From assembly GCA_016219225.1 (NCBI GenBank), contig JACRBX010000097.1, positions 1,106-65,105 on the forward strand: a stretch of DNA of 64,000 nucleotides, in the 5' to 3' direction. Below are positions 24,232 to 54,724 of the stretch, piece by piece. Position numbers and translations under genes: made by a program. The notes below the pieces were generated by a model. That model had not been told where the DNA came from. It made no database searches and worked only from the letters and a program-made list of their open reading frames with translations. The stretch is from Deltaproteobacteria bacterium. Lineage in GTDB: Bacteria; Desulfobacterota; RBG-13-43-22. Numbering within the stretch: position 1 is the first letter of the stretch; the number at the start of each line of letters is the position of its first letter.

Positions 24232-24241
24232 TGGACGCCTC

Positions 24242-25436: not shown

Positions 25437-25455
25437 TTAATTCAAACCATCCATA

Positions 25456-26617: not shown

Positions 26618-26893
26618 CTATCCTTTATAGCCTTTATAGCCTTTGTCATAGTATGGACTTTTATAGAAATCGCACTGCATACAACTGGCCACTTTCATGG
26701 CAAATTTCCCTTGCACCTTCCCCCCGCAGAGGGTGCCGGCTATCCAGGCACAATGCTTGCCGTGATTCGGGAAGGCAGGACAAACCCCCAATTCCTGGGC
26801 CTTGATTCCTCCTAATTGACGGCCACAATTTTTGAATTCCCAACAATTCACTGTATCCTCCTTGCCAATAAAATTCCTGAAGAAAAGTTTCAA
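26618..26893 (-). CDS. Small Cys-rich protein with an NCWEFKNCG motif (two-CW-domain-like)
   Basis: The NCWEFKNCGRQLGG...GVCPA...HCAWIAGTLCGGKVQG...CMQCDFY pattern has 8 Cys. The C-terminal KGYKGYKG is encoded by a 9-bp tandem repeat. Confidence 0.6.
   Translation of the reverse strand: MKLFFRNFIGKEDTVNCWEFKNCGRQLGGIKAQELGVCPAFPNHGKHCAWIAGTLCGGKVQGKFAMKVASCMQCDFYKSPYYDKGYKGYKG
26622..26648. repeat. 9-bp tandem repeat (CCTTTATAG x2 plus a partial copy) overlapping the 3' end of the Cys-rich gene
   Basis: Read directly from the sequence. Confidence 0.7.
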
Positions 26894-26980
26894 AAACTTC
26901 CCATAAAGGTTTTATCGGATTGGCCGGGAGAAAACTTAAATCCGAAGCGAAAATTCAAGCCAACTCATTGAATTATATAA

Positions 26981-27169
26981 AATAAGGATTGGAAGTACCC
27001 TGCCAAATTACGACGTCTGGCCGATACCCTGGAAGCCGGAAAGAATTTTTCCATCCAGATTTCCGGCGAACGTCTTTACGTCCCGTCGTCGGCCGTGGTC
27101 AATATCGAGCATGAGCGGGAAGGCAATTGGGAAGAGGTGGAATTCCAGATCAAATGGAAGAGGGCCTAA
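26981..27169 (+). pseudogene. Amphi-Trp-domain gene fragment (C-terminal part only, no start codon)
   Basis: The frame ending at TAA 27167-27169 reads NKDWKYPAKLRRLADTLEAGKNFSIQISGERLYVPSSAVVNIEHEREGNWEEVEFQIKWKRA. An in-frame TAA at 26978 lies directly upstream, and there is no ATG, GTG or TTG in between. Confidence 0.5.
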
Positions 27170-27204
27170 GCCGAAGGGGGAAGCTGGAAGCAGGAAGATA
27201 ATTT

Positions 27205-38912: not shown

Positions 38913-40496
38913 TTAAATATTTTTGGTTTCAGTTTTTATCTCCAATATCCGGTCGAGACGAAAATGACGCAGGTCCTGCCTTTCATGGCAGTAGGCGCGC
39001 AGGCCTTCGAATCGTTTTCCTCCATATTCCATCATCTCAATAGACTCGGGGCGGATGCGGCGGCGGGATTTGGTGTCATCCGGTTTGAGATAGATGATCT
39101 CCAGGTCTTTTTTTTCCTCCATCACCTCTTTAATGATCCTGACCTTGTCGACATAAGAAAGTCTTTCTTCGGCCTTTTTATATTGAAACCGGGTCAGAAA
39201 TTTAACCACCCTGAAATCCATCAGAATGTGATGCTTTTGAATGGGCTTGGAAAGAATCAGGCCTTTAAGGCTGGTGCAGCGGCTCAGGGCCACATAAACC
39301 TGCCCGTGGGCGAAGGTACCCCGGCCGATGTCGATGACCACCTTTTCAAAGGTCTTGCCCTGACTCTTGTGAATGGTAATGGCCCAGGCCAGTTTCAGGG
39401 GGTATTGGGTGAAGGCGCCCACCGGTTGGGAAAATATTTTCCGGGCATTGGCATCGTAGGTATATTTTAAGATCTCCCAGGTAACGGGCGTAACCCGGGC
39501 AACCGTATTGTCCTCCAACTCCACCTGGATGGTATCTTCTTCCCCACGGCGGGAAATGATCCCGGTGATCTTGCCGATCGAGCCGTTGACCCAGCGGCCA
39601 AGGGGATCATTATTGAGAAGCATGACCTGGGCCCCGGTTTTCACTTCCAGAATCGTCTCGGTGGGCAGGGCCGAGGGTTCGAAGTCGCCTTCGATAAGGC
39701 CTTGAAAGGTAACCGCTTTACCCGCAAGACGATCCAGTTTTTCCTGATTTCTCTGAAAGGCCTGGTCATTGGTACTGGTCAGATAAATATAAAAATCATC
39801 TGCCTCCGGAAGAAAATCCGGGGCGCAATTTTGATTGAGCCGGACCATATCGGCATCGGTGATGGAACGGTTCCGGATGGCGTTGAGAAGACCGATGAAA
39901 TCTTCATCAGTCTGGCGGTAGATCTTTTCCAGCTCCACGAATTCCATTTCAAAACGAGGGGTCGTAAAAATTCGGGAGGAAAAAAAATAAGGGGTTTCAT
40001 ATTGAAGGCGGAAAACGGCCTTTTCAGCCGAGGTGACCACGGGAGGGAGTTGATAAAGGTCGCCGATAAAAATCATCTGGATTCCGCCGAATGATTTTTT
40101 AGGCTGCCGGCCGTTGAGGCGGAGGAATTTCTCCACACAGTCCAGGAGGTCGGCCCGGACCATGGAGACTTCGTCGATAACGATGGTTTCCAGTTGTTTA
40201 TAGAGGGTCGGCCGCTTGCTGTCCTTTGGGCTCTTTTTTTTGACCTTATCCAGGGAAATATCCGGTTTAAAGCCGCAAAAGGAATGGATGGTCTGCCCCC
40301 GGACATTGAGGGCCGCCACCCCGGTAGGGGCCAGGACGGCGATCTTTTTGCGGGTCATTTTTCGAAAATGATCCAGCAAGGTCGATTTTCCCGTCCCGGC
40401 CTTCCCGGTGACAAAAAGATGCCGGTCGGTATTCTCCATCAGCTCCAGGGCCTGCTGAAATCGCTCATTGATCTCGATCGGGTTGGTTTTGGGCAT
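38913..40496 (-). CDS. PIF1/RecD-like SF1 helicase with a C-terminal WYL-like domain
   Basis: Walker A GKAGTGKST, IVIDEVSMV, AITIHKSQGKTF and VALSRC motifs. The C-terminal ~70 aa (LEIIYLKPDDTKSRRRIRPESI...LRAYCHERQDLRHFRLDRILEI) fits the WYL pattern. The start is at ATG 40496. Confidence 0.8.
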   Translation of the reverse strand: MPKTNPIEINERFQQALELMENTDRHLFVTGKAGTGKSTLLDHFRKMTRKKIAVLAPTGVAALNVRGQTIHSFCGFKPDISLDKVKKKSPKDSKRPTLYKQLETIVIDEVSMVRADLLDCVEKFLRLNGRQPKKSFGGIQMIFIGDLYQLPPVVTSAEKAVFRLQYETPYFFSSRIFTTPRFEMEFVELEKIYRQTDEDFIGLLNAIRNRSITDADMVRLNQNCAPDFLPEADDFYIYLTSTNDQAFQRNQEKLDRLAGKAVTFQGLIEGDFEPSALPTETILEVKTGAQVMLLNNDPLGRWVNGSIGKITGIISRRGEEDTIQVELEDNTVARVTPVTWEILKYTYDANARKIFSQPVGAFTQYPLKLAWAITIHKSQGKTFEKVVIDIGRGTFAHGQVYVALSRCTSLKGLILSKPIQKHHILMDFRVVKFLTRFQYKKAEERLSYVDKVRIIKEVMEEKKDLEIIYLKPDDTKSRRRIRPESIEMMEYGGKRFEGLRAYCHERQDLRHFRLDRILEIKTETKNI

Positions 40497-40637
40497 GAGG
40501 TTTAGGTAACATTGTTTAACAGGGGGTGTCAACGGCAATTGGAAAGGCTAAGGAATAGGGGGCCAATTTGTCTTGACTTTTCCTGATTTCTTTTCTACTT
40601 AAATGACGTTGATATTTTCCAATATTGGAGGGGATAG

Positions 40638-41603
40638 ATGCTCGTCTCAAAAAGCAAGTGTTTTTGGGTAGTTTTGGCATTGGTGGGGATGATGATCCCC
40701 GGTCTGGCCCATTCGGCTAATTTTCCGAACAAACCTATTACCCTGATCGTCCCTTACCCGGCCGGAGGGGCAACCGACGTGGTTATCCGGCCTCTGGCGG
40801 AAGCGGCCAAAAAATATCTCGGCCAACCGGTGATTGTGGAAAACAAAGGCGGCGGCGGCGGAGCTGTAGGCGTTGGCAGCATTATCGGGAAAAATCCGGA
40901 TGGCTACCTTCTTTCAGTAGTGGTTACCAGCCTCCACCGGGTTTCCTATATCAATAAGCTCTCTTTTGATACGGTAAAGGATATAACCCCCGTCATGCGG
41001 GTTGGCGGTTACCTTTATGGTATCCTGGTCAATCAAAATTCCCCCCATAAGACTCTGAAAGACCTGCTGGATTATGCCAAGGCCAATCCTGGAAAGCTCA
41101 GTTACATGGCTTCCGGGATCGGAACCGGTGGGCATATCGCCATGGAAGAACTGGGCTATTTTTCCGGAGGCCTCAAGTTCAATCATCTGCCTTCGAAAGG
41201 GGACCAGGAATCCTCCACAGCCCTTCTGGGCGGTCACGTAGATGCCATTTCCACGACATCCGGCTGGATCCCCCTGGTCGAGGCCGGAAAACTGCGATTA
41301 TTGGCCACCTATGGAGACAAAAGGACCAAGCGGTATCCCAACATACCCACCGTATATGAGCTGGGGTATAAATTTGTTCATACCTCTCCCATCGGTATTG
41401 TGGGCCCCAAAGGGATGCCCAAAGAGATCATCAAGGTCTTGCATGATGCCTTCAAGAAAGCCCTGGATGATCCCTTGTTTTTAGAGACCATGGCTAAATT
41501 CGAGATGCCGGTCATGTATCAAAATTCGGAGGATTTCGGGAAATATTGGGCCGAGGCTTATGGTGAAGCCGGGGAACATGTCAAAAAATATATGAAGAAA
41601 TAG
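40638..41603 (+). CDS. tctC: TctC (Bug family) substrate-binding protein, second system
   Basis: Signal peptide plus the PITLIVPYPAGGATDV and ENKGGGGG motifs. Confidence 0.85.
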   Translation: MLVSKSKCFWVVLALVGMMIPGLAHSANFPNKPITLIVPYPAGGATDVVIRPLAEAAKKYLGQPVIVENKGGGGGAVGVGSIIGKNPDGYLLSVVVTSLHRVSYINKLSFDTVKDITPVMRVGGYLYGILVNQNSPHKTLKDLLDYAKANPGKLSYMASGIGTGGHIAMEELGYFSGGLKFNHLPSKGDQESSTALLGGHVDAISTTSGWIPLVEAGKLRLLATYGDKRTKRYPNIPTVYELGYKFVHTSPIGIVGPKGMPKEIIKVLHDAFKKALDDPLFLETMAKFEMPVMYQNSEDFGKYWAEAYGEAGEHVKKYMKK

Positions 41604-41608
41604 CCGAC

Positions 41609-42064
41609 TTGAAAAAATCGTCCTCGATCATCAATATCATCTGGATCGCCTTTTCGGCTGCCGTTGCCCTGGAAGCCTGGCGTTTGGACCCGGGTAACCT
41701 CCATTCCCCCGGGCCGGGTTTTTTGCCTTTTATAGCCGCTGTGCTCCTGGGAATTCTGGCGGTAATCGCTTTTATCCAGACCCTGAAGGAAAAGGCCTCC
41801 CAGGACAAGGGATTCCTCTCCTTCGGGGATTATTTGATCAAGGTAGGTTTCCTGACCGGGGCCTTGATCGTTTACGTCTTTTTACTTAATGTACTGGGTT
41901 TTTTATTGGGGACCTTTCTCCTGCTCCTATTGTTATTCCGGATAGTCGAACCCTTAAGGTGGCGAACGGTTTTGATGGCCACTCTGATCACCTTGGGTGT
42001 CGTTTATCTCCTTTTTAACGTATTCTTGGGGACCCAGTTGCCCAAAGGGGTTTTAGGACTGTGA
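41609..42064 (+). CDS. tctB: TctB small membrane subunit, second system
   Basis: 151 aa with four hydrophobic segments and a TTG start. It lies between tctC and tctA. Confidence 0.7.
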   Translation: MKKSSSIINIIWIAFSAAVALEAWRLDPGNLHSPGPGFLPFIAAVLLGILAVIAFIQTLKEKASQDKGFLSFGDYLIKVGFLTGALIVYVFLLNVLGFLLGTFLLLLLLFRIVEPLRWRTVLMATLITLGVVYLLFNVFLGTQLPKGVLGL

Positions 42065-42095
42065 CAGACAACTCAGGATGCATGATTATTAACTT

Positions 42096-43610
42096 ATGGA
42101 TGTAATTAACCAACTCCTTCTGGGTTTTTCGGTAGCCTTTCAGCCGGTCAACCTGTTTTATTGTTTTTTGGGCTGCTTGATCGGGACACTGGTCGGGGTG
42201 CTGCCCGGTCTGGGGCCTACGGCGGCCATGTCCCTGTTGCTTCCCACCACCTTTCACGTGCCTCCGGTTTCGGCCATCATCATGTTGGCCGGGATCTATT
42301 ACGGGGCCATGTACGGCGGGTCCACTACCTCCATCCTGGTCAATATTCCAGGTGAGGCCGCTTCCGTCATGACCTCCCTGGACGGCTATGCCATGGCCCG
42401 CCAGGGGAGAGCCGGCCCGGCCCTGGGAATATCCGCTTTTGGTTCCTTTATAGCAGGCACCATTGGACTGGTTGGATTATCCTTTCTGTCTCCTCCCCTG
42501 GTCTCTTTCGCCCTCAAATTCGGACCTCCTGAATATTTTTCCCTCATGTGCCTGGGCATGGTGGTCCTCACCTTCCTGACCTCCGCTTCCATGATTCAAT
42601 CTCTAATGATGGCCTGTTTGGGGATCATTATCGGGACAGTAGGCACTGATACGGTATCGGGGTCCACCCGTTTTACCTTCGGGATAATGGAGTTGATGGA
42701 TGGTGTGGGTTTGGTCCCTTTGGTAATGGGCCTCTTTGGTATCTCCGAAATACTTCTCAATCTCGAACAGAAGATCAATCGGGATATTTTTATGACCCGG
42801 GTCAAAGGTCTGCTTCCGACGGCCCAGGATTGGCTCCAGGCCAAATGGGCCATCCTCCGGGGAACAGTGATCGGGTTTCTGCTCGGTATCCTGCCCGGCG
42901 GCGGAGCGGTCCTGGCCTCCTTTGTGGCCTATGCCATAGAAAAAAAGGCTTCCAGGACACCGGAAAAATTCGGCTCCGGTATGATTGAAGGGGTGGCCTC
43001 TCCCGAATCGGCCAATAATGCAGCGGCCCAGGCGGCCTTTATCCCCCTTTTGACCCTTGGACTTCCATCCAATGTCGTCATGGCCGTACTTTTGGGGGCA
43101 TTGATCATCCACGGCGTAACGCCGGGACCTCTTCTTTTAAGTCAACACCCCGATGTTTTCTGGGGGGTGGTGGCCAGCATGTATCTGGGCAATATGATGC
43201 TTCTGGTCTTGAACCTCCCTCTTATCGGGATCTGGGTTCAACTCCTCAAGATCCCCTATCCTTTGATGATGCCCATGATTATTATTTTCTGCCTCATCGG
43301 GGCCTATTCCATCGCCGGCAGTACTACCGATATCTATATCATGCTTTTCTTCGGGGTCATCGGCTATTTGATGAAAAAACTCCGCTATGAGGCCCCTCCC
43401 CTGGTCCTGGCCTTTGTTTTGGGGCCCATGCTGGAGTATTACCTGAAATCATCGCTCATGTTGTCCCACGGAAGTTTCCGGATCTTTTTTATCCGCCCTA
43501 TTTCAGCCGTTTGCCTGATCATTACCTTATTGCTTTTATTTCTTCCTGTTCTGAAGACCTTTCGAGGGAAACGGGTAGCCGTTGCTGAAAAAGCCGAAGA
43601 TCTCTCTTAA
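42096..43610 (+). CDS. tctA: TctA large permease, second system
   Basis: Same motifs as the first TctA (GVLPGLGP, YGAMYGGSTTSILVN, ESANNAA). Confidence 0.9.
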   Translation: MDVINQLLLGFSVAFQPVNLFYCFLGCLIGTLVGVLPGLGPTAAMSLLLPTTFHVPPVSAIIMLAGIYYGAMYGGSTTSILVNIPGEAASVMTSLDGYAMARQGRAGPALGISAFGSFIAGTIGLVGLSFLSPPLVSFALKFGPPEYFSLMCLGMVVLTFLTSASMIQSLMMACLGIIIGTVGTDTVSGSTRFTFGIMELMDGVGLVPLVMGLFGISEILLNLEQKINRDIFMTRVKGLLPTAQDWLQAKWAILRGTVIGFLLGILPGGGAVLASFVAYAIEKKASRTPEKFGSGMIEGVASPESANNAAAQAAFIPLLTLGLPSNVVMAVLLGALIIHGVTPGPLLLSQHPDVFWGVVASMYLGNMMLLVLNLPLIGIWVQLLKIPYPLMMPMIIIFCLIGAYSIAGSTTDIYIMLFFGVIGYLMKKLRYEAPPLVLAFVLGPMLEYYLKSSLMLSHGSFRIFFIRPISAVCLIITLLLLFLPVLKTFRGKRVAVAEKAEDLS

Positions 43611-44179: not shown

Positions 44180-45562
44180 TCAGGATTGAAAATTATCCTT
44201 GGCCAGGATACCGAACTGCTTCATTCTATTCCAGATGGTTACCCGGGAAACCCCCAGGATCCGGGCGGCTTCCGATTGATTGCCTTTGGCTTGCTTGAGG
44301 GCCTCCAGAAGTTCCTGCTTTTTCTTTTCCATGGGATTGACCGGGACTCTTTCCGGGGAAGGTGTCCTTCCGGACCTCTGGAAAAGACTGGAAGGCAGAT
44401 GGTGGGGTTGGATCAAGCCTTCCGGACAGGTCACAAAGGCGTATTCAAAAACACTCCGGAGTTCCCGGATGTTGCCCGGCCAATCGTAGCCCATGAAGAC
44501 CTCCATGGTTTCCGGGTTTATTCCCTGGATCGGTTTTCCGCTTTTAAGTTTCATCCGTCGGAAAAATGTCTCGGCCAATAAGGGGATATCCTCCCGCCTT
44601 TCTCTCAGGGCCGGCAACTGGACCGGGATGACATTGATCCTGAAGAAAAGATCCTCCCGGAAAAGCCCTTTATCCACCAGGGTTTTCAGATCCTTATGAG
44701 TTGCTGAAATAATCCGCACATCAATAGGTTTGGGTTTGTGATCCCCCACCCGTTCAATCATCTTATTTTCCAGGACCCTTAATAACTTGACCTGGGTGGA
44801 AAGGGGAAGATCCCCCACTTCATCCAAGAAGATATCGCCGCCATGGGCCGCCTCAAACCGGCCTTCCCGGTCTCGAATGGCGCCGGTGAAAGCCCCTTTC
44901 ACATGCCCGAAAAGCTCACTTTCCAGCAAGGACTCCGAAAGGGCCGCACAATTGACCTTGACAAAAGGTTTGCCCTGGCGGGGGCCGCTTTCATGAATGG
45001 CTTCGGCCGCCAACTCCTTTCCGGTGCCGCTTTCCCCGAATATAATCACCGGGGCATCGGACTGGGCCACCTTGGCCAGGAGATCAAACACCCGAACCAT
45101 GGGAGGGGACACCCCCAGCGAGCCATGGAAACCATCCCTGGACCGGAGTTCCCGGCGGAATTCCTCTATCTGGTGGTCTTTTTCAATGATCTCGGAAATG
45201 TCGGTCAGGGTTTCCACGGCCCCGATGACCTGGCCCGAACTGTCATGGAGTAAGGAAGCGTTTTTCAAAAGGTGAAAGGACTGCCTGTTTTTTTTCTTCA
45301 TGGTGCACTGCTTCATCCTGATTTCACCGGATTTAAACAGGTTGCACCAGTGTTGCCCGGCCTGATCCCGGACGATATGGCACATATTGCAATCCAGGAC
45401 GGAACAGGGTTTTCCGATCAACTCCCCTTCTTTATACCCCAGGAGCTTATCCACGGCCTTATTGACCGATACGATAACCCCCTTCCGGTCGACGATAATG
45501 ATCCCTTCCTTAATGGTGTCCACCACGGTTTTCCAATAGCGGTTCATTTCAGGTTTCAACAT
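44180..45562 (-). CDS. Sigma-54-dependent transcriptional activator (Cys-rich PAS, AAA+, Fis-type HTH)
   Basis: GESGTGKE Walker A, the GAFTGA loop, a C-terminal HTH ([17 protein letters not shown]), and an N-terminal PAS domain carrying five Cys. Confidence 0.92.
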
Positions 45563-45573
45563 AGGGCTTTACT

Positions 45574-45625
45574 CCTGTTAAATAATTAAACATTTGTTAA
45601 ATAATAAGTTAACACATTAAACAGG
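45574..45625. promoter_or_regulatory. AT-rich dyad/direct-repeat region, candidate activator binding sites (UAS)
   Basis: TGTTAAATAAT is repeated at 45576 and 45595. TGT-N11-ACA sits at 45576-45592 and TGT-N14-ACA at 45595-45614. The outer arms are CCTGTT / AACAGG. The region lies about 100-150 nt upstream of the -24/-12 promoter. Confidence 0.3.
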
Positions 45626-45721
45626 TCCTGGCAAGCCCCCTTCAGGATTTACAGGAAAAAGATAACCAGAATGCAAAGCCCTTTCCCGGAATCCGCCTGT
45701 TGAAAGACCCCCAAAACGCCT

Positions 45722-45737
45722 TGGCACCAATTATGCT
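45722..45737 (+). promoter_or_regulatory. Sigma-54 (-24/-12) promoter upstream of the tusA-like gene
   Basis: TGGCAC caatta TGCT. GG at 45723-45724 and GC at 45735-45736 are separated by exactly 10 nt. The promoter lies about 50 nt upstream of the tusA-like start, with the divergent sigma-54 activator next door. Confidence 0.7.
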
Positions 45738-45787
45738 ACACCCTAAGTCAACTGTGAAACTTACACCGAAAACCCAAAGGGAGGAAG

Positions 45788-46048
45788 ATGATCATGACCG
45801 AATCGGAATTGACAACCATGCCGATAGCTAACACCGTCGATGCCCGGGGCAGTGCCTGCCCGGGTCCTATTCTGGAAGCCAAAAAGGGGATCGGCAAGGT
45901 CAAGGTAGGGGAGATACTGGAGGTCCTGTCCGGCGACCCGGGAACCCGCACGGATATCCCGGCCTGGGCCGGTAAAGTGGGGCATGACTATTTAGGCATT
46001 TTGGAATCGGACGGCAATGACCGGCTTTTTGTGAGAAGGAAAAAATAG
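45788..46048 (+). CDS. tusA: TusA/SirA-family sulfur carrier protein
   Basis: DARGSACPGPILEAKKG carries the conserved CPxP active-site motif. The size (about 85 aa) fits. The start is ATG 45788 or 45794, after GGGAGG. Confidence 0.85.
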   Translation: MIMTESELTTMPIANTVDARGSACPGPILEAKKGIGKVKVGEILEVLSGDPGTRTDIPAWAGKVGHDYLGILESDGNDRLFVRRKK

Positions 46049-46057
46049 GACGGAACC

Positions 46058-46480
46058 ATGATCCCCAAGGATACAGAAGGGAAGATCCTCATTTTGGCCA
46101 CCGATCATTGCGCTTATCCAGGGGCCAATTCGGTCGGACAGGCCCACAGCCCTTACCCGGCCAACACCTATATCCTCAGGGTGCCTTCTCCGGTGCTCTT
46201 TCCCGAAACCTTTTATCTGGATTGTTTTCAAAAAGGGATCGGGGGCATTCTCATCATGACCTGCGGCCATGAATGCCCCTATCCCGGGGCCTACGACGCC
46301 CTGGCCAAACGAATCGACCGGGTTTACGCCTTAATGAAAAAGAAGGACCTGGATATCCGCCGGCTCCGTTTAACGGCCATCTGTACGGTCTGCAACCGGG
46401 CCTTTCTCAAAGAGGTGAACGAAATGAACAACCTGGTTAAAGGACTGGAGCCAGTGGGCGTAAGGAGCGCTGCCGCTTGA
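46058..46480 (+). CDS. MvhD/FlpD-like protein (methyl-viologen-reducing hydrogenase delta-subunit family), divergent
   Basis: It aligns by eye to MvhD (ILRV..P..F....F..G..G.L...C....C.Y..G), but several canonical Cys positions are substituted. Confidence 0.7.
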   Translation: MIPKDTEGKILILATDHCAYPGANSVGQAHSPYPANTYILRVPSPVLFPETFYLDCFQKGIGGILIMTCGHECPYPGAYDALAKRIDRVYALMKKKDLDIRRLRLTAICTVCNRAFLKEVNEMNNLVKGLEPVGVRSAAA

Positions 46481-46506
46481 GGGAGGAGGCTGGAGGCCGT
46501 TATCTG

Positions 46507-46582
46507 GGAAGGCCACGAAGCCTGAAAATGGTTTATTCCGAACTCCGAACTCTAAACTCCGAACTTTATTTTCATGTTAATC
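46507..46582 (+). repeat. Heptamer-array element (core, array, tail)
   Basis: Core GGAAGGCCACGAAGCCTGAAAAT at 46507-46529. Array TCCGAAC TCCGAAC TCTAAAC TCCGAAC at 46537-46564. Tail TTTATTTTCATGTTAATC at 46565-46582, directly before the RBS of the next gene. Confidence 0.85.
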
Positions 46583-46592
46583 TAAGGAAATT

Positions 46593-47897
46593 ATGGAGCA
46601 TAGAAAATTAAGAACATTTGATACCCTGGTTATCGGCGGCGGTATCGCCGGACTCCAGGCGGCCCTGGATCTGGCCGAACAGGGTTTCAAGGTGGCCATC
46701 GTGGAAAAGGACGCCTCTATCGGTGGGAAGATGATCCGTCTTTCCAAAGTATTTCCCACATTGGACTGTGCCAGTTGCATCACCACGCCCAAAATGGCCG
46801 CCGCCGCCCATCATGAAAATATCACCCTCTTTACCTATTGTGATCTGAAATCTCTGGACCGTCAAAACGGTCTTCTTTCCGCCAGGGTGACCCAAAAGCC
46901 CCGGTATGTGGACCCGGCCAAATGTATCGGCTGCCGGCAGTGCGAATATGGCTGTCCGGTCTATGTGCCCGATGCGGAACAGGGGGGGTTCGGTGCCCGC
47001 AAAGCCATTTATATCCCCTTTTCCAATGCCGTCCCCCAGATTGCTCTGCTGGATGTGGCCAACTGCGCCTTATGCGGCAAATGCGCCAAAATCTGTCCGA
47101 CCCAGGCCGTGGATTATTTGGAGCAGCCCGCGGATTTTGTCATCCAAAGCAAGACGGCGATTCTGGCAACCGGATTTAAGTTGACCCCTTTGAATCAAAA
47201 GGAAGAATACGGCCAGGGTCGGGTTGAAAATGTCATTACCTCCTTGCAGATGGAGCGCCTTCTGGCCCCTCACGGACCGTTCCAGCGGGTCATCCGTCCC
47301 TCCGACGGCAAGGAGCCGGGCTCCATCGCCTTTGTGCAGTGCGCCGGTTCCCGGGATAAAAGTCTGGGGATCCCTTATTGTTCCAGGGTCTGCTGCATGT
47401 ACGCCATCAAGCAGGCCATGCTCCTTTCCGGCGCTCTGCCCATGGCCGATATTACCATTTACTATATGGATATCCGGGCCTTCGGCAAAGGCTATGAACA
47501 GTTCTTTCAAAATGCCCGGGCCATGGGGATCGAGTTTGTCAAAGCCAAGATAGCCAAAATAAAATCCGGTGAAAATCAGAATGTGGTCTTGAGTTATGAA
47601 AATCAGGAAGGGGACGGCGGCCTGATGCATCGGGAACATGATCTGGTTTCCCTTTCCCTGGGGATGGTGCCGGATTGGAACCCCGGAACAGTCTGCCCGG
47701 TGACCATGGGTGACGATGCCTTTATCCAACCCTACAGAGTCCACTTGGCACCGGCCTTGACCAATATGGAAGGGGTTTTTGCCGCCGGGGTGGCCCTGGG
47801 ACCCAAAGATATCGTCGATACCATTGCCGAAGCCGGGGCCGCGGCAATGGAAGCCTCCAACTATTTAACGGCCATGAAAAGAAAAGAGGCGGCTTGA
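46593..47897 (+). CDS. hdrA: HdrA-like FAD/Fe-S oxidoreductase (short, QmoA-sized) with an inserted 2x[4Fe-4S] ferredoxin domain
   Basis: GGGIAGLQAALDLAE FAD motif, FPTLDCASCITTPKM, two CxxCxxCxxxCP motifs, and CAGSRD...YCSRVCCMYA. Confidence 0.85.
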   Translation: MEHRKLRTFDTLVIGGGIAGLQAALDLAEQGFKVAIVEKDASIGGKMIRLSKVFPTLDCASCITTPKMAAAAHHENITLFTYCDLKSLDRQNGLLSARVTQKPRYVDPAKCIGCRQCEYGCPVYVPDAEQGGFGARKAIYIPFSNAVPQIALLDVANCALCGKCAKICPTQAVDYLEQPADFVIQSKTAILATGFKLTPLNQKEEYGQGRVENVITSLQMERLLAPHGPFQRVIRPSDGKEPGSIAFVQCAGSRDKSLGIPYCSRVCCMYAIKQAMLLSGALPMADITIYYMDIRAFGKGYEQFFQNARAMGIEFVKAKIAKIKSGENQNVVLSYENQEGDGGLMHREHDLVSLSLGMVPDWNPGTVCPVTMGDDAFIQPYRVHLAPALTNMEGVFAAGVALGPKDIVDTIAEAGAAAMEASNYLTAMKRKEAA

Positions 47898-47906
47898 TGT
47901 TAATAG

Positions 47907-48016
47907 AATTAGTTAGACATGGCCTGGATTCCCGCCTCCGCCCTTCCCTCCGGCCTGTAAGCCCTACGGGCTGGAAGCGGGGACGGTGTCCCCAACGGGA
48001 CGGAGTCAGGAATGAC
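47907..48016 (+). repeat. GTCATTCC/GGAATCC hairpin-repeat family, long member
   Basis: AATTAGTTAGACATGGCCTGGATTCCCGCC...GGACGGAGTCAGGAATGAC. It is the reverse-complement relative of 22574-22650 and shares its head with 54681-54724. Confidence 0.75.
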
Positions 48017-48057
48017 GAATCTTTACAGTGTCACCAATCGTAGCAGGAGAAAAAGAT

Positions 48058-49964
48058 ATGGCCACTGAAACAGAAAACAGGCCGGAAGAAATGGAAAAAA
48101 AAGTCGGTGTCTATATCTGCCATTGCGGCGGCAATATTTCAGACCATGTGGATGTCCGGCAGTTGGCGGAAAATGCCGGACATCTTTCCGGGGTGGCAAC
48201 GGCCCGGACCAACATGTTCATGTGTTCCGATGCCGGCCAGGAACTGATCCAGGAAGACATAAAAAAGGGTCTGGTCAACCGTATCGTGGTGGCCTCCTCG
48301 CCCCCAGTCTGCATGAAACGACCTTTCGGGGGGCCATCAAACGGGCCGCTATGAACCCCTATCTGTATGAACATGCCAATATACGGGAGCAGGTCAGTTG
48401 GGTCCATCATGGAAAGCAGGCCACCGACAAAGCCACCCGGCTGGTGGCGGCGGCCGTGGCCAAGACGAAAAAGATGGAACCCCTGGACCCGATTCGGGTT
48501 GAAGCCAAAAACCATGCGGTCGTTATCGGAGGCGGGGTGGCCGGATTGCGGGCGGCTGTCGATCTTTCCCGGCGAGGCGTCGAAGTGGCCCTGATAGAAA
48601 AATCCCCCTTTTTGGGTGGCCGGGCGGCCGGCCTGGACAAACTGGTGCCCAGCGGAGAGTCGGCCCCTGAACTGATTCGCCAATTAGTCGGGGAAGTCCT
48701 GGCTGAAAAAAATATTACGATTTATTCCTGTTCCGAGATCGTCAAGGCCGACGGGTATGTGGGAAACTTTAAGCTCACCTTTCAGAGAAGACCTCCCGAA
48801 TTGAATGGGGATCCAACAAAGCAGGCCTTCCCGGATTACAAAAATGCCGCCGTGGGTGCTTTTATCCCCTTTGCCGGATACTTCCCGCAACCCATCCCGG
48901 AAATAACCGAAGAATTCACCCTCCATACCGGGGCCGTCATCCTGGCCACGGGATTTAAATCCTATGACCCCTTACCAGGGGAATATGGTTTCCAGGAACA
49001 CCCGGAAGTCATCACCCTGCCGGAGCTTATCCGGCATATGGCCCGAACCGGCTCTCAAGGGTCTCAACTGGAATTGAACGGCAAAAGGATCGAACGGCTG
49101 GCTATGATTCACTGCGTAGGCAGCCGGCAGATACCGGGTATTCATGAACCCGGTCCGGAAGGCATCCTGAACGAATATTGTTCCAGAACCTGCTGCAGCG
49201 CCACCCTCCAGGCCGCCAGCGTCATCAGGGAAAAATACCCGAAAACAAGGGTCTTTGAATACTACCGGGATATCCGCACCTACGGTCGGGGACAGGAAGA
49301 ATACTATGAACGGGCCTCGAAAAATCAGGTACTCTTTTTGCGTTTCGAGCCGGATGCCCCTCCGGTGATCGAGGCGGCTGCCGGCTCAGGACACCCTTTA
49401 AAGGTGACGGTAAAAGATACCCTGACCTTCGGAGAGGAAATTGAAGCCGAGGTGGATCTGGTGGTCCTGTCCGTAGGCATGGAGCCGAATGATATCTCGG
49501 AACTGGTGGAAATGATGAAACTGCCGGTAGGTTCCGATCGCTTTCTGCTGGAAGTCCATCCCAAGCTCCGTCCGGTGGAAGTGGCCAAGACCGGTGTCTT
49601 ATTGGCCGGGACTTGCCAGGCCCCCATGGATATCAGTGAGGCCTGCAATGCGGCCCAGGCGGCTTCGGTCAAGGCCTCGGCTTTGTTGACCAGGGGGTAT
49701 GTAGAGTTGGATCCTTATGTAGCCCAGGTCGACCTGAGCCGCTGCACCGGCAATGGCCTTTGCGCCGCCGTCTGCCCTACGGAAGGGGCCTTACAAATGA
49801 TGGACAGGGTTGTTGACGGGCAAAAGGTCCGGCGGGCCCGGGTCAACCCGGCCCTTTGCACCGGATGCGGTATCTGCGTGGCCGTCTGTCCTGATAAGGC
49901 CATCGATATCAACGGCTGGAAGCTGGAGCAGTATGAAGCCATGGTGGAAGCCATAGCAGGATAG
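48058..49964 (+). pseudogene. hdrA: HdrA-type oxidoreductase (long form with a C-terminal ferredoxin domain) interrupted by a 1-nt frameshift in a C5 run
   Basis: The N-terminal part is in the frame of ORF 48028 ([18 protein letters not shown]...[10 protein letters not shown]). The rest is in the frame of ORF 48123 (SLHETTFRG...[12 protein letters not shown]...CVGSRQ...YCSRTCC...two CxxCxxCxxxCP motifs). The frames join if CCCCC at 48301-48305 becomes C6. Confidence 0.8.
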
Positions 49965-49965
49965 A

Positions 49966-49993
49966 GTTCGGATTTCGGAATGCGGATTTCGGA
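49966..49993 (+). repeat. Heptamer array (GTTCGGA TTTCGGA ATGCGGA TTTCGGA)
   Basis: Read directly. It lies immediately after the hdrA stop. Confidence 0.7.
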
Positions 49994-50037
49994 ATTAAAA
50001 CGAGTCATGAGGAATAATTCCAAATAGAAGGAAAACC

Positions 50038-50319
50038 ATGAAAGAGATGACCGGCCAGGAGGCCTTAAAAAAGCTTAGAGACGAACGCCAAGTCTGGATA
50101 GAGCAGGCCAAGAGCCTGATAAAAGAACAGAGTTCGATCATAAAAAAAATCAAGGAGCACCTCCAGGGTGATGGCAAAACCGTGCCGGAAATCGCCCGGG
50201 CCACTGGAATCAAAAGCTCAGAGGTCCTTTGGTTTGTTATGGCCCTGAAGAAATACGGCCAGGTGCTCGAGGGTCCGAAAGATGGCGACTATTATAAATA
50301 TGAACTCACCAACCCCTAA
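50038..50319 (+). CDS. Small winged-helix-like protein
   Basis: 93-aa ORF with an RBS-like AGGAA upstream. The central TVPEIARATGIKSSEVLWFVMALKKYGQV segment looks like an HTH/wHTH. Confidence 0.55.
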   Translation: MKEMTGQEALKKLRDERQVWIEQAKSLIKEQSSIIKKIKEHLQGDGKTVPEIARATGIKSSEVLWFVMALKKYGQVLEGPKDGDYYKYELTNP

Positions 50320-50343
50320 CCCGGACAAGCCGGAACCAAAAAA
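50309..50343 (+). repeat. 27-nt motif, variant copy (CCAACCCCTAACCCGGACAAGCCGGAACCAAAAA)
   Basis: Related to 28420-28446 and 63976-64000. It overlaps the stop codon of the wHTH gene. Confidence 0.6.
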
Positions 50344-50408
50344 TTCGTAACAATTTAGCCCTTTGAAAAACTTGAAACTTTTGTTTGAAAATCCCGACTT
50401 TCGCACAC

Positions 50409-50433
50409 GTCATTCCGGTGAAAACCGGAATCC
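50409..50433 (+). repeat. Hairpin repeat GTCATTCCGGTGAAAACCGGAATCC (downstream flank of the intron)
   Basis: It is the exact reverse complement of 52409-52433 and belongs to the GTCATTCC/GGAATCC family. Confidence 0.85.
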
Positions 50434-50461
50434 AGGTGTTATGCTGCGACGAAAAGAACCT

Positions 50462-52408
50462 ATAGGGGTAGGAACGGTGCATTGGTTTGCACCGCCCCTC
50501 CCTCCGAACCGGACTGGCGGATCTCCCGCATCCGGCTCTCCAGTCGGTGGTTATCCTCATGAGGACTGAAGCAAGGCGCGATGGGCATTATAAAGGCTAA
50601 AATACCCAAGGTCCTGAAAGTATTTGTTTGGCCATCGTATGTTGTCCTTGCCCCGGCTAATCCCTTTGCCTTTGCTGTAGCCCCGCAGGATACTTCTGAG
50701 CCTGCGTCTTATCCAGCCGTCCAGTGGCTTGAAGGTCGTCCAATGGCTGTGCTTGAAGTATTCAAACCATCCTACGCTCGTTTTGTTGACCTCATCGATG
50801 ATCTCCGCAATACTGCGGCCATTGCTGCGTTTGGTCTTACGGCGAATGGTGTCTTTGAATTTCTTCATGCTCTTCTTGCGCGGCCAGCGGGTGCCCTTCT
50901 CAAAGTGATAGCCGAGAAAGTCGAAGCTCTGGCCGGCTTGTTGTGTGTTAACCAAACTGGTTTTGTCCGCGTGCAGGGTCAGACCCCGAGCTTGGACCAG
51001 TTCGTTCACCCGCGTCAATGCCGCTTGAGCTTCTGGCTGGCTCTTGCACAGGATGACGAAATCGTCCGCATAGCGAACCATCTCGTATCCCTCCGTCTTC
51101 ATGACCTTGTCCACCTCGTGCAGATAAATGTTGGACAGCAGCGGGCTGATCACCGCCCCTTGTGGCGAGCCCGTTTCCGGCGTCCACAGTTTCAGGTCTT
51201 GCAAAATCTGCTGTTTGAGAAAGCTTTCGATCAATTCCAGTACGCGGCTGTCAGCGATGCGCTGTTGCACCTCTTTCATCAGGCGTTCATGCCCGATGGT
51301 TTCAAAGTAGCTCTTAAGGTCGGCGTCCACTACCCACGTGTTGCCTGCCCTGAGCAATCGCTCGACGCTTCGAAGGGCATCCTTGCACCCTATGCCGGGC
51401 CGGAAGCCAAAGCTGGTGTCCATGAACTCATGCTCGAAGATCGGTTCGATGACCATCTTGAGCGCTGTCTGCACCACTTTGTCCCGCACCGTCGGTATTC
51501 CCAGCGGCCGCTTGTCCTTGCTGCCGGGCTTGTCGATGTAGGTGCGACGTATCGGCCTGGGCCGATATGTACCGGTGCGCAGTTCCTCTTCAAGTTTTGC
51601 CAGGTTCTTCGTCAGTTGCTCCTCAAACTGTTCCAGACTTTGTTGGTCCGATCCTACCGCGCGACCTTTGCCTCTGACCTGTTGCCATGCCTCCAGAAGG
51701 ACTTGGGGCCGGTGTACCTTGTCATTCAGGCTGAACCAAACGCCTCCTTTCACCCCCTTTTCCAGGGCCTCCAGCATACGATCCGTCCATACCGTACGTT
51801 GTACCCAGCTCCATTGACCGGAACGGATTTCTCCTGCTTGCTTAGTCCTTGCGGGCACTGTCGCAGGTTTGTTTTCGCACGCTATGTCCTTCACCTATCC
51901 ACCTTCCTGCGTCCCTTGACTCCACGGGCATTACCCCGCTTCCTTGCTAATATGGACGCTCTGACTCCTGCCCGTACGGCTCTCCGTCTACTTGTTGAGC
52001 AGACTCGATTCCAACCTTTACACAGGCAGGTCTCCCTGGTTCACATGGCGCGACCTTCAATGCATTCCGTCACCAAACACCTGACGCGTCCCGTCATCGC
52101 TTTTGTGCTGCCCGCCCAGCGTGATGGGCTTCCAGGACCATTTCGCTTCCGTGGGACTCGCAGTCGTTCACGGGGTTTATACCAACCTGGGGTAAGCTTT
52201 CGCTCCTGGTCTGGACTTCGCCTCGAATCCGCAGGCTCGTCACTACGTACGGCCGAATCGTGTTCGCACTATTACTACGGACTGCATGTTCGCCTTGGGT
52301 TGCTCCCCACCCCACCTCGCGGTGACGCAGTTACCTTTGGCTACCGGGCTCGGGCATCTCCCGGAGGAGGACTTTCACCTCCCAAATCACGCCTGCTTCC
52401 AGGCGCAC
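50462..52408 (-). mobile_element. Group II intron (about 1.95 kb) encoding an RT/maturase without an endonuclease domain
   Basis: The minus-strand 5' end reads GUGCGCC, starting at 52408. Domain V is GAGCCGGAUGCGGGAGAUCCGCCAGUCCGGUUC (50506-50538). A domain VI helix with a bulged A follows, and the 3' end ...CCCCUAU sits at 50462. The RT ORF lies in the domain IV position. Confidence 0.85.
50557..51894 (-). CDS. Group II intron reverse transcriptase/maturase
   Basis: RT motifs (RPLGIPTVRDKVVQTALKMVIEP, the YADDFVIL catalytic box) and a maturase X-domain-like C-terminus. No HNH/En domain is present. Confidence 0.93.
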   Translation of the reverse strand: MKDIACENKPATVPARTKQAGEIRSGQWSWVQRTVWTDRMLEALEKGVKGGVWFSLNDKVHRPQVLLEAWQQVRGKGRAVGSDQQSLEQFEEQLTKNLAKLEEELRTGTYRPRPIRRTYIDKPGSKDKRPLGIPTVRDKVVQTALKMVIEPIFEHEFMDTSFGFRPGIGCKDALRSVERLLRAGNTWVVDADLKSYFETIGHERLMKEVQQRIADSRVLELIESFLKQQILQDLKLWTPETGSPQGAVISPLLSNIYLHEVDKVMKTEGYEMVRYADDFVILCKSQPEAQAALTRVNELVQARGLTLHADKTSLVNTQQAGQSFDFLGYHFEKGTRWPRKKSMKKFKDTIRRKTKRSNGRSIAEIIDEVNKTSVGWFEYFKHSHWTTFKPLDGWIRRRLRSILRGYSKGKGISRGKDNIRWPNKYFQDLGYFSLYNAHRALLQSS

Positions 52409-52433
52409 GGATTCCGGTTTTCACCGGAATGAC
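52409..52433 (-). repeat. Hairpin repeat GTCATTCCGGTGAAAACCGGAATCC (5' exon side of the intron, minus strand)
   Basis: Exact inverted copy of 50409-50433. The intron starts immediately after ...GGAATCC. Confidence 0.85.
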
Positions 52434-52530
52434 GGAGAGGTTGTCGACGTTTTTTGAAAAAGCTAAACTGATACAAAAAATTCTATCCATTTTGCGTAGA
52501 AATTTATTCCTAAGTTACTAAGGGAGAACG

Positions 52531-53733
52531 ATGATGGCTGACCGGATTGATCCTGATTTGATGACCCAATTAAAAAAGTTCGGCCTGTCCGATGCCACGG
52601 AATGCTTCAATTGCGGCAATTGCACGGCCGTCTGCGCTTTGTCTTCGGAATCCACCCCCTTCCCCAGGAAGGTCATCCGCTATTTGCAGTTGGGCTTAAA
52701 ATCCAAACTGGCCGGGAGCGTGGAACCCTGGCTCTGTTATTACTGCGGCGACTGTTCCAAAACCTGTCCGCGGCAGGCCAATCCGGGGGAAGTCATGATG
52801 GGGCTCCGCCGATTTCTGACTGCATCTTATGACTGGACCGGCATTTCGCGCCTTTTCTATACCTCAAAAATATTTGAAGTCCTGTCGCTTTTGGTGGTAG
52901 CCGCCCTGGTGGGCCTGGGCTTTTATTTCTTTCACGGTCCCATGCTGACCGATCGTGTGGCCTTAAATGTCTTTGCCCCCAACACGACCATTGAGATCCT
53001 GGACCTGATTATGCTGGGCGTCCTGTCTTTTTTCCTCTTGAGCAATGCTTACCGGATGTCAAAAGCCGTTATGGCCGACGGGCCGGCAGCCGGACCGGAG
53101 TCTCGGCCCAAAGGGATATTCGGGATCCCTTTGTTAGTTTATGCCAGGGAGGCCAAGGAATTCATCCTTCAGTTTACGACCCAGAAGAGATTTAACGCTT
53201 GCGGGACCCCCTCGCAAAGGACCCAGTGGCTGGTCCATCTACTGATCATGACCGGATACTCCACCGTCTTTCTGCTGGTGGTGGTGGGCATCCGTTGGTT
53301 TCAACGGGATGAAATCTATCCTTTATGGCACCCCATCCGGTTGCTGGGCTATTATTCCACCTTTGCCATCCTCTACGGTGTCACTTACGCCCTGGTCGGC
53401 AGGATCAGGAAAAGCAAAACCGTTTACCAGCATTCCCATTCATCGGACTGGGTCTTTTTAATCATGCTTTGGCTGACCGCTTTCAGCGGCATCTTGATTC
53501 ACTTTGCCCAGTTGCTGGTTATGCCTCTGACCACCTACTTTATCTATGTCATTCACCTGATGATCGCTGTCCCTATGCTGGTCATTGAAGTCCCTTTTGC
53601 CAAGTGGACCCACCAGCTTTACAGGCCCCTGGTCCTTTATCTGACGAAAGTCAAGGAAAGGGCTCTGCAGGAGGAAACTGAATCCGAAACCATAATAGCC
53701 GTTCCCAAAGCCAATCTGGCGGAAATGGGCTAA
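52531..53733 (+). CDS. QmoC/HmeC-like membrane redox subunit: HdrC-like 2x[4Fe-4S] domain fused to a six-TM cytochrome-b-like (HdrE/NarI-type) domain
   Basis: CFNCGNCTAVC and CYYCGDCSKTCP motifs sit at the N-terminus. Six hydrophobic helices follow, with conserved-looking His residues (HLLIMTGY, ILIHFAQ, VIHLMIA, KWTHQLY). Confidence 0.72.
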   Translation: MMADRIDPDLMTQLKKFGLSDATECFNCGNCTAVCALSSESTPFPRKVIRYLQLGLKSKLAGSVEPWLCYYCGDCSKTCPRQANPGEVMMGLRRFLTASYDWTGISRLFYTSKIFEVLSLLVVAALVGLGFYFFHGPMLTDRVALNVFAPNTTIEILDLIMLGVLSFFLLSNAYRMSKAVMADGPAAGPESRPKGIFGIPLLVYAREAKEFILQFTTQKRFNACGTPSQRTQWLVHLLIMTGYSTVFLLVVVGIRWFQRDEIYPLWHPIRLLGYYSTFAILYGVTYALVGRIRKSKTVYQHSHSSDWVFLIMLWLTAFSGILIHFAQLLVMPLTTYFIYVIHLMIAVPMLVIEVPFAKWTHQLYRPLVLYLTKVKERALQEETESETIIAVPKANLAEMG

Positions 53734-53758
53734 CCGAATCAACAAAGGAGAAACACCA

Positions 53759-54133
53759 ATGGCGGAAAAAGAAGAAAAAGTCCTGTTTATCTGCACCCAC
53801 GCCGGGGATGATCCGGAAAAGGCGGCCATGCCTTTTGTCATGGCCTGCGCGGCCCTGGCCATGGACGTCAAGGCCCTGGTGGTTTTGCAGGGCGAGGGCG
53901 TTTTCCTGGCTAAAAAAGGCTACTGCGAAACCCTGGCTAAACCGGGAGGCTTTGAATCCCTGACCAAACTGATTGCTGATTTTCTGGAATTGGGAGGGGA
54001 ACTGAAGGTCTGTGTCCCCTGTATCAGGATCCGTAATATTGCCGAATCCGATCTGATTGATAAGACCGGGACAACGGCTGCCGGCCAACTCATCACCGAA
54101 TCGCTCAAGGCCAACGCCGTCTTTACCTATTAA
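53759..54133 (+). CDS. DsrE/DsrF-like family sulfur-relay protein
   Basis: The VLFICTHAGDDPEKAAMPFVMA N-terminus is typical of DsrE-like proteins. A Cys pair (CVPC) sits near the C-terminal third. The protein is 124 aa. Confidence 0.72.
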   Translation: MAEKEEKVLFICTHAGDDPEKAAMPFVMACAALAMDVKALVVLQGEGVFLAKKGYCETLAKPGGFESLTKLIADFLELGGELKVCVPCIRIRNIAESDLIDKTGTTAAGQLITESLKANAVFTY

Positions 54134-54538: not shown

Positions 54539-54724
54539 GTCATTCCCGTGAAAACGGGAATCCAGTGTTTTAAATTAGGACGCTGATTTTCGCCGATACC
54601 CGCAGATAACTACTCTATATATTCAAAATCTTGGCAATCTGCGTCGATCTGCGTCCAAAAAGGAAATTCCTATACCCTTAAATTAGTTACATATAGCCTG
54701 GATTCCCGCCTTCGCGGGAATGAC
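54539..54724. repeat. Cluster of hairpin repeats (GTCATTCCCGTGAAAACGGGAATCCAG; a GGACGC..ATCTGCGTCC dyad; AATTAGTTACATATAGCCTGGATTCCCGCCTTCGCGGGAATGAC)
   Basis: Units at 54539-54565, about 54579-54656, and 54681-54724 were read directly. They are members of the same families seen at 22574-22688, 47907-48016 and 50409/52409. Confidence 0.75.

Follow-up and report, generated by a model that had tools for sequence, protein, structure and literature searches.

A predicted sigma-54-controlled QmoABC paralogue linked to TusA and DsrE, a candidate redox module for carrier-bound sulfane sulfur

A stretch of 64,000 nt of Deltaproteobacteria bacterium GCA_016219225.1 (contig JACRBX010000097.1, positions 1,106-65,105 of the forward strand; hereafter, the window) contains a gene cluster in which two sulfur carriers, TusA and DsrE, are encoded together with an MvhD-like protein, two HdrA-type flavoproteins, a winged-helix protein and a QmoC-like membrane subunit. 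The cluster is tentatively read, at slightly less than even confidence, as a sigma-54-controlled, rearranged paralogue of QmoABC, whose products would form a Qmo-type, menaquinone-linked complex acting on the sulfane sulfur of TusA and DsrE. The gene set recurs in essentially all of 80 related loci, spread over at least four phyla; hence, the cluster is not a chance arrangement. Genes were called from a listing of open reading frames (ORFs) and from profile hidden Markov model (HMM) searches (Pfam, NCBIfam, Rfam). All the genes and the promoter named in a preliminary description of this DNA were recovered and every element of the gene string is present, but a frameshift in hdrA2 and a 2198-bp insertion had been overlooked there. 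The cluster is composed of the following features:

44180-45562, minus strand: sigma-54 activator with a PAS (PAS_9) domain, Sigma54_activat (PF00158, 231 bits) and a Fis-type helix-turn-helix (HTH_8)
45722-45737, plus strand: -24/-12 promoter, TGGCACCAATTATGCT (TGGCAC-N5-ATGCT), ~50 nt upstream of tusA
45788-46048, plus strand: tusA (PF01206, 70.7 bits), with Cys24 in a CPGP motif
46058-46480, plus strand: MvhD/FlpD-like gene (PF02662, 63.5 bits; MvhD matches in PDB at 1e-10)
46593-47897, plus strand: hdrA1, QmoA-sized, 434 aa (HdrA matches in PDB, 1e-107 to 1e-114)
48058-49964, plus strand: hdrA2, QmoB-like, 635 aa if repaired (FRAMESHIFTED, 1-nt deletion after 48298)
50038-50319, plus strand: winged-helix protein, 93 aa (AlphaFold2 predicted local distance difference test, pLDDT, 93.1)
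52531-53733, plus strand: qmoC-like gene (NCBIfam qmoC, NF038018, 187 bits over model positions 4-358 of 360)
53759-54133, plus strand: dsrE (PF02635, 55.4 bits), DsrE3-like, with a CVPC motif

The neighboring genes were scored with family-built HMMs at the best 80 QmoC-like loci, the denominators being the loci with sufficient flank. Two HdrA genes were detected at 63 of 64 loci, FlpD at 61/61, TusA at 58/58 and a DsrE-family gene at 52/52. The TusA/DsrE linkage, a key element of the preliminary description, is therefore conserved. The DsrE-family gene varies in place and type by lineage, yet is never lost: Desulfobacterales and Anaerolineae have it 3' of qmoC, Desulfobulbales and Phycisphaerae have a different DsrE upstream of tusA, and some loci have the DrsE_2 type. 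The winged-helix gene, present in 73 of the 76 loci, always occupies the interval between hdrA2 and qmoC. Neither apr nor sat was found within 10 kb of 79 TusA-linked loci; among the 80 loci, only L081 adjoins apr, and its QmoAB differ. No other conserved oxidoreductase was found near the cluster.

A search with the QmoC-like protein returned 3197 homologs at E<=1e-10, the top 120 of which are all at least 75% identical, and a search with the Desulfocapsa ortholog returned 4478 homologs at E<=1e-50. In a survey of 185,579 species genomes (one genome per species), relatives were present in 486, in addition to thousands of metagenomic homologs. QmoC orthologs are 70-98% identical within Desulfobacterota and ~50% across phyla. 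The hosts belong to Desulfobacterales, Desulfobulbales (Desulfocapsa, Desulfopila, Desulfobulbus), Phycisphaerae, Anaerolineae and other Chloroflexota, with single metagenome-assembled genomes (MAGs) from other groups, including one Bacteroidota MAG. Protein clusters of Desulfobacterales yielded MAGs only as relatives; through a Desulfobulbales query, the full set was found in the cultured sulfate reducer Desulfomarina profundi (AP024086.1, inside the interval 3,983,020-4,004,192). The proteome supplement of Desulfolithobacter held no entry assignable to the cluster.

Some loci carry additional genes. In 38 of 65 related loci, dsrE is followed by a gene for a conserved Cys/His-rich protein of ~235 aa that matches no Pfam or NCBIfam family (examples are L002 11748-12455, L020 11709-12410, L050 7569-8276 and 30 further loci); this gene is absent from the closest relatives, and no remnant was found in the window. 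Several Desulfobacterales MAGs (L020 12559-16108, also L010, L015, L032, L050 and L061) possess a second, different Qmo-like pair 1-3 kb downstream, of which one member (410 aa) is HdrA-like and the other (528 aa) has an MvhD domain at its C-terminus. A variant in a Draconibacterium-labelled MAG (L083 3870-11125) comprises DrsE_2, TusA and FlpD, followed by an NAD(P)H-binding flavoprotein of the GltD/HdrL-like kind (5186-7060, scored as 625 aa) and then by HdrA and QmoC; a winged-helix gene was not detected in it. This variant is a hint that, in some lineages, electrons may be exchanged with NAD(P)H.

The two flavoproteins divide the domains of HdrA between them. HdrA1 aligns to HdrA residues 145-562, which cover the flavin adenine dinucleotide (FAD) domain and the inserted 2x[4Fe-4S] ferredoxin domain; it retains the FPTxDCxxC motif of HdrA, which is absent from HdrA2. 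HdrA2 is built of the HdrA N-terminal Fe-S domain, an FAD domain lacking the ferredoxin insert and, at the C-terminus, a 2x[4Fe-4S] domain. Its alignment to the HdrA in PDB 5ODC covers residues 3-236 and 319-647, with a Cys-free segment at the insert site; an MvhD domain is absent. As read from these alignments, the two proteins are complementary, with one copy of each HdrA accessory domain between them. HdrA1 is also colinear with apr-linked QmoA, and HdrA2 with QmoB residues 3-593. The architecture of the cluster is that of QmoA, QmoB minus its MvhD domain, a separate MvhD and QmoC: the C-terminal MvhD of QmoB is unfused here.

The Qmo reference set consisted of 80 aprA loci drawn from metagenomes; median values were computed against 47 QmoA and 42 QmoB of apr loci, which are all of one kind. 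HdrA1 shows a median identity of 33% (211 bits) to apr-linked QmoA versus 41% (326 bits) to M. wolfeii HdrA. For HdrA2, the values are 27% (177 bits) to apr-linked QmoB versus 38% (398 bits) to M. wolfeii HdrA. By this measure, methanogen HdrA is the closer relative of both flavoproteins, and canonical QmoA/B the more distant one. Inside the TusA-linked set, the identity amounts to 57-93% for HdrA1 and 43-93% for HdrA2. The identities to QmoA and QmoB, together with the lack of apr adjacency, speak against the alternative raised in the preliminary description, namely that these genes are orthologs of canonical qmoABC beside aprBA.

The QmoC-like protein combines an HdrC-like 2x[4Fe-4S] domain with about six hydrophobic, putatively transmembrane, segments in a hydropathy scan. 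Its eight Fe-S Cys residues and His236, His303 and His324 are invariant (73/73), while His135, His342 and His361 are kept in 71-72 of 73 sequences. The conserved His residues sit in or beside hydrophobic segments and would be suited to serve heme b. Database labels by JGI and one depositor name the membrane protein QmoC. The NCBIfam qmoC model has a cut-off of 300 bits, however, and both the window protein (187) and its D. profundi ortholog (193) score below it. The apr-linked QmoC proteins fall into two classes: class I shares just 20-30% identity with the window protein and reaches 396-403 bits, and class II is 40-63% identical to it and reaches 200-256 bits. In a neighbor-joining tree of 95 QmoC sequences, class (type) I is monophyletic in 100/100 bootstraps, and the TusA-linked and class II apr-linked QmoC together form the other clade, also in 100/100. 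The TusA-linked sequences are monophyletic by themselves in just 4/100 bootstraps. The window QmoC-like protein thus belongs, on sequence grounds, to a 'type II' clade, which presumably corresponds to the QmoC of the type II Qmo of Neukirchen et al. (PMC10504309).

The type II QmoC clade also serves genuine sat-aprBA-qmoAB clusters (L081, L098, L115, L129 and L137) and includes the QmoC of sat-aprBA-qmoAB clusters of the Gram-positive type. One example is L081, from Desulfofundulus thermobenzoicus. A role as a quinone-linked anchor is well founded for the window protein, because the same QmoC clade anchors these clusters. The apr-linked QmoC of L098, L115, L129, L137, L146 and L081 remain below the NCBIfam cut-off, so that genuine Apr-linked QmoC proteins escape automatic annotation.

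Both putative sulfur carriers have conserved Cys residues. Cys24 of TusA is kept in 19/19 orthologs, and Cys85 and Cys88 of the CVPC motif of DsrE in 31/31. The only match of DsrE in PDB is 3MC3, the DsrE3A of S. solfataricus (E = 5e-5), with the active-site Cys aligned. DsrE3 proteins pass sulfur to TusA in vitro (PMC11094781). In the MvhD/FlpD-like protein, a CxxC (C109, C112) is invariant, but two Cys residues are missing at positions canonical for MvhD, one in the N-terminal Cys pair and one in the RVmCsG motif; the stand-alone ORF and the altered Cys pattern agree with the earlier view of MvhD as a separate and divergent gene. For the 93-aa protein, the predicted fold is a long N-terminal helix followed by a winged helix, and the sequence contains no Cys. 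Foldseek with this model returned only generic winged helix-turn-helix proteins (YgaV, MarR, Zalpha; E ~3e-3), without a match to DsrD or to a specific regulator family. The protein may be a subunit of the complex or a regulator.

The divergent sigma-54 activator and the well-spaced -24/-12 promoter of the preliminary description are borne out. A GAFTGA motif is read in the translation of the AAA+ domain, beside the PF00158 match. The consensus TGGCAC-N5-WTGCW has a single match in the 64 kb, the promoter itself, versus 0.08 expected, and the element agrees with the sigma-54 promoter form used for comparison (GG-N10-GC, TGGCAC-N5-TTGCW, ahead of the first gene). An ortholog of the divergent activator is found in 43 of 53 loci, and a -24/-12 element with at least nine of 11 positions matching occurs in the same intergenic region of 40/45 Desulfobacterota loci. 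In the PAS domain of the activator, Cys53, Cys58, Cys61, Cys73 and Cys86 are invariant in 40/40 orthologs, with the spacing C-x4-C-x2-C-x11-C-x12-C. This five-Cys domain would sense sulfane sulfur or the redox state and switch on expression. The Anaerolineae loci lack the sigma-54 activator (0/10). The core cluster of Chloroflexota (L070-L073, L079, L080, L082 and L084) is flanked instead by an ArsR-type gene on its upstream side and by a LysR-type gene in divergent orientation; the best PDB relatives of the Anaerolineae ArsR protein are YgaV, BigR and SqrR. FisR and BigR are a precedent for persulfide-responsive control of sulfide detoxification operons (PMC7315123). The regulators of the cluster fall into classes in which sensing of sulfide or persulfide is known.

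Taken together, FlpD, HdrA1, HdrA2 and QmoC would assemble as one membrane-bound complex, carrying electrons between the menaquinone pool and the persulfide sulfane sulfur on TusA and DsrE. The HdrA-type flavin would probably couple a low-potential carrier as well, for example ferredoxin. The textbook potentials are ~-270 mV for S0/HS-, ~-75 mV for menaquinone and ~-450 mV for ferredoxin; as the S0/HS- couple lies midway between menaquinone and ferredoxin, a bifurcating flavin of the HdrA type could couple the three. It is possible, but rather doubtful, that the complex is a previously unrecognized membrane-bound, flavin-based bifurcating or confurcating oxidoreductase acting on TusA/DsrE sulfane sulfur and coupling S0/HS- to menaquinone and ferredoxin. 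The reductive direction is favored, because the hosts are strict anaerobes, in which the persulfide dioxygenase route with its need for oxygen is lacking, and many of them do not respire sulfur: menaquinol (MKH2) and reduced ferredoxin would turn carrier-bound sulfane sulfur into H2S. The outcome would be an oxygen-independent removal or respiration of persulfide or polysulfide sulfur. Carrier-bound sulfur is the putative redox substrate, and any link to disproportionation, polysulfide or thiosulfate is hypothetical. For the Qmo-like complex with a TusA/DsrE relay of the preliminary description, the conserved linkage holds; a role specific to sulfate reducers or disproportionators is disfavored, because Anaerolineae, Phycisphaerae and a Bacteroidota MAG carry the cluster too.

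Several points weigh against the proposed persulfide-acting complex. Its main weakness is the absence of an HdrB-type catalytic (CCG) subunit, as a result of which the site of persulfide reduction or formation cannot be assigned. The direction of electron flow is not readable from the sequence, and TusA and DsrE could act in maturation or signalling rather than in substrate delivery. The AlphaFold2 model of the QmoC-like protein, calculated from a 12-sequence alignment, reached a pLDDT of only 44.7.

With the same anatomy and the same thermodynamic midpoint, the complex could also run in the oxidative, bifurcating direction, in which sulfide or thiols yield TusA-SSH and the electrons are split to menaquinone and ferredoxin. 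It would then be a cytoplasmic, SQR-like, ferredoxin-generating enzyme feeding Dsr-type disproportionation or oxidation. The FPTxDCxxC motif of HdrA1, the proximity of both flavoproteins to bifurcating HdrA rather than to QmoA/B, and the occurrence in Desulfocapsa, Desulfopila and Desulfobulbus lineages fit such an enzyme. It is nevertheless considered unlikely, as Anaerolineae and Phycisphaerae are not known sulfur oxidizers, no enzyme taking sulfane sulfur to sulfite is encoded in the cluster, and sequence evidence for the direction is lacking. Somewhat less likely again is a generic menaquinone:ferredoxin (or NAD(P)H) hub whose true partner is encoded elsewhere, TusA and DsrE being accessory or regulatory proteins or donors of cofactor sulfur. 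In its favor, canonical Qmo has no catalytic site itself and docks onto AprAB, type II QmoC is shared with apr-linked QmoAB, the L083 variant adds an NAD(P)H flavoprotein, and an HdrB-like catalytic subunit is missing. It fits poorly with the presence of TusA and a DsrE-family gene at every sufficiently flanked locus, across phyla and despite reordering, and with the lack of any other oxidoreductase conserved nearby.

The chemistry of the carriers leaves room for another proposal, in which they hold a thiosulfonate (R-S-SO3-) derived from thiosulfate or tetrathionate and the complex cleaves it to sulfide and sulfite. The only solved relative of DsrE, DsrE3A (3MC3), is described as an established thiosulfonate carrier (PMC11094781), and a passage of thiosulfonate from DsrE3A to TusA has been reported (PMC4175335). 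That similarity is weak, however, bacterial DsrE3B/C bind persulfide sulfur derived from polysulfide (PMC11094781), and no conserved thiosulfate or tetrathionate enzymes adjoin the cluster, which makes this proposal improbable. Little speaks for the organism's own QmoABC, serving adenosine 5'-phosphosulfate (APS) reductase in sulfate reduction, beyond the QmoC database labels and the full-length alignment to the QmoC model. It is very improbable and was rejected on the score of 187 against the 300-bit cut-off, the flavoprotein identities, the unfused MvhD, the absence of apr and sat, and the occurrence of the cluster in phyla without described sulfate reducers. Most improbable, and likewise rejected, is a heterodisulfide reductase-like (sHdr) system that oxidizes sulfur, although TusA, DsrE3-like and HdrA-like proteins are found together in shdr clusters as well (PMC11094781). 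No CCG-domain match was obtained among the cluster proteins, and no lipoate-binding protein (LbpA) among the seven cluster genes or their immediate neighbors. HdrB1/B2 and a soluble HdrC are missing, a membrane QmoC is present instead, and sHdrA (6TJR) matches the FAD core only (3e-36 vs. 1e-114 for methanogen HdrA).

The window copy of the cluster appears to be damaged at two places, as revealed by comparison with its closest relatives (L005, L086 and L003). In hdrA2, the reading frame changes after the N-terminal 80 codons. The G of the Cys81 codon is gone after position 48298 (L005, GCCTCCTGCGCC; window, GCCTCCT-CGCC), and re-adding one G yields a 635-aa protein that aligns to the one of L005. 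Cys81 (motif VVASCAPSLHE) is kept in 65/65 orthologs and aligns with the Cys of AACSPRLHE in the N-terminal Fe-S domain of HdrA (PDB 5ODC). The frameshift may be a real mutation or a sequencing or assembly error. The two are indistinguishable, because no independent assembly spanning position 48298 was found; there is no record with a truncated product or an identical HdrA1, and a Logan contig (L085) ends 22 bp past the winged-helix gene. The assembly is not generally error-prone, as the 13 other genes shared by the window and L003 are all full length. The frameshift may make the module of the window non-functional.

The second lesion is a strain-specific insertion between the winged-helix gene and qmoC, absent from the three relatives, in which this gap measures 12-27 bp. 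Its parts are as follows:

50320-52517, minus strand: strain-specific insertion, 2198 bp, a hairpin-repeat element carrying a group II intron
50462-52408, minus strand: group II intron, 1947 nt, with 5' GTGCG at 52408-52404 and domains V/VI at 50540-50462
51894-50557, minus strand: intron-encoded protein (reverse transcriptase and maturase), 445 aa, intact (RVT_1, 133.8 bits; GIIM, 51 bits)

Domains V/VI match Rfam RF00029 with 52.2 bits (gathering score, 40). The 3' end of the intron reads ...CCTAT at 50462, and both ends agree with the 5' GUGYG and 3' AY of group II introns. No endonuclease domain was detected in the 445-aa protein. The insertion point of the intron is directly behind the GGAATCC of a hairpin repeat (CGTCATTCCGGTGAAAACCGGAATCC^AGG), whose motif CATTCCGGTGAAAACCGGAATCC is present at 50411-50433 (plus strand) and 52409-52431 (minus strand). 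Because it is antisense to the operon, the intron cannot be spliced from the operon transcript, and the distance of qmoC and dsrE from the promoter has grown by 2.2 kb. With the gene string split by this antisense insertion, it is doubtful that the -24/-12 promoter drives co-transcription in this genome. From its sequence, the window copy is probably inactive or crippled by the frameshift and by the antisense insertion ahead of qmoC and dsrE.

The hairpin repeat belongs to a family, CGTCATTCC[C/G]GTGAAAAC[C/G]GGAATCCAGG, dispersed in intergenic spacers; one copy is the intron target. Copies are located at 22622-22688, ~47932, 50409-50435, 52409-52433, 54539-54565 and 54700-54724 of the window, including the hdrA1-hdrA2 spacer and the region 3' of dsrE.

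Elsewhere in the window, there are genes for transporters, CoA-transferases, fatty-acid enzymes and an RND pump, along with a small toxin-antitoxin islet; apr, sat and dsr are absent from the 64 kb. The islet (22600-27200) has a low GC content (0.41-0.47). An MNT-HEPN pair lies in it at 23157-23788 and a DUF2442-DUF4160 pair at 23965-24502; of its four small ORFs that lack family matches, one encodes a Cys-rich protein of 91 aa (26618-26893). Compared with the syntenic L003, an extra block is present at 38913-43610, between a glycosyltransferase gene and the sigma-54 activator. Its genes are those of a PIF1-like helicase that has a WYL domain and of a TctC homologue, together with membrane ORFs of 151 aa and 504 aa, which were read as TctB and TctA without a family search.

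We know of no dedicated handling of cytoplasmic sulfane sulfur in strict anaerobes living in sulfide or polysulfide and, to our knowledge, the entry step of sulfur disproportionation is unresolved. The cluster may show how oxygen-free microbes process reactive sulfur. If the proposed complex is real, it would be an anaerobic counterpart of sulfide:quinone oxidoreductase (SQR) and persulfide dioxygenase (PDO), and a candidate for the missing first step of disproportionation. In that case, the sulfur cycle would gain a new reaction, respiratory or detoxifying, protein persulfide would join the substrates of flavin-based bifurcation, and a function would be assigned to the 'type II Qmo' proteins, whose present annotation is QmoC or ferredoxin. 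The window copy is of little value itself, because it is apparently damaged, but the cultured carrier Desulfomarina profundi makes the hypothesis testable.

No published description of a TusA/DsrE-Qmo-like gene set was found in the searchable full-text literature. The HdrF and HdrA3 loci of Desulfobacterium autotrophicum (PMC2702500) are different clusters, and the YTD cluster is another TusA/DsrE set. The cluster is a Qmo/HdrA module of type II that is linked with a sulfur relay: its proteins are partly in the literature (PMC10504309), and no account of their linkage to sulfur carriers was found there. As the preliminary description held, it is neither canonical QmoABC nor sHdr, with no HdrB/CCG or LbpA in the cluster and no apr or sat in the window.

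With canonical QmoABC, the cluster shares the common plan of two HdrA-derived flavoproteins and an HdrC-like 2x[4Fe-4S]/six-transmembrane, heme-b-type subunit. Canonical QmoABC, however, adjoins aprBA/sat, its type I QmoC is the distant one in the comparison above, and its QmoB has a fused C-terminal MvhD, whereas HdrA2 of the window ends after the ferredoxin domain. Moreover, the window cluster adds the winged-helix, TusA and DsrE genes and the sigma-54 control. In the type II Qmo of Neukirchen et al., the QmoA/B-like proteins are closer to HdrA than to bacterial QmoAB; these systems occur with or without Apr and Dsr, and their role was left open (PMC10504309). No linkage to TusA, DsrE, MvhD or a winged-helix protein and no regulation is mentioned there. 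The window flavoproteins are likewise nearer to HdrA and the QmoC-like protein likewise stands apart from type I; here, the partners of the type II QmoC are sulfur carriers and flavoproteins of type II instead of Apr.

The MvhAGD-HdrABC complex (5ODC) has in common with the window cluster the HdrA-aligned pair, an MvhD homologue and an HdrC-like domain. In the window, the HdrA domains are divided over two polypeptides and the HdrC-like domain is fused to a membrane part; the HdrB and hydrogenase of that complex are both missing. The sHdr-LbpA systems (PMC11094781) likewise associate TusA and DsrE3-type carriers with HdrA-like redox proteins. In contrast to them, the window cluster lacks HdrB1/B2, soluble HdrC1/C2 and LbpA, possesses a membrane anchor and is hosted by anaerobes. 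The cluster shares its two regulator classes with the FisR, BigR, SqrR and YgaV systems: next to it, the Desulfobacterota and Phycisphaerae loci have a sigma-54 activator, and those of Anaerolineae an ArsR protein of the YgaV/BigR-like kind. Unlike in FisR-type systems, the predicted sensor here is a five-Cys PAS domain. FisR/BigR systems drive SQR, PDO and TauE, whereas the genes under control in this cluster are those of a Qmo-like complex.

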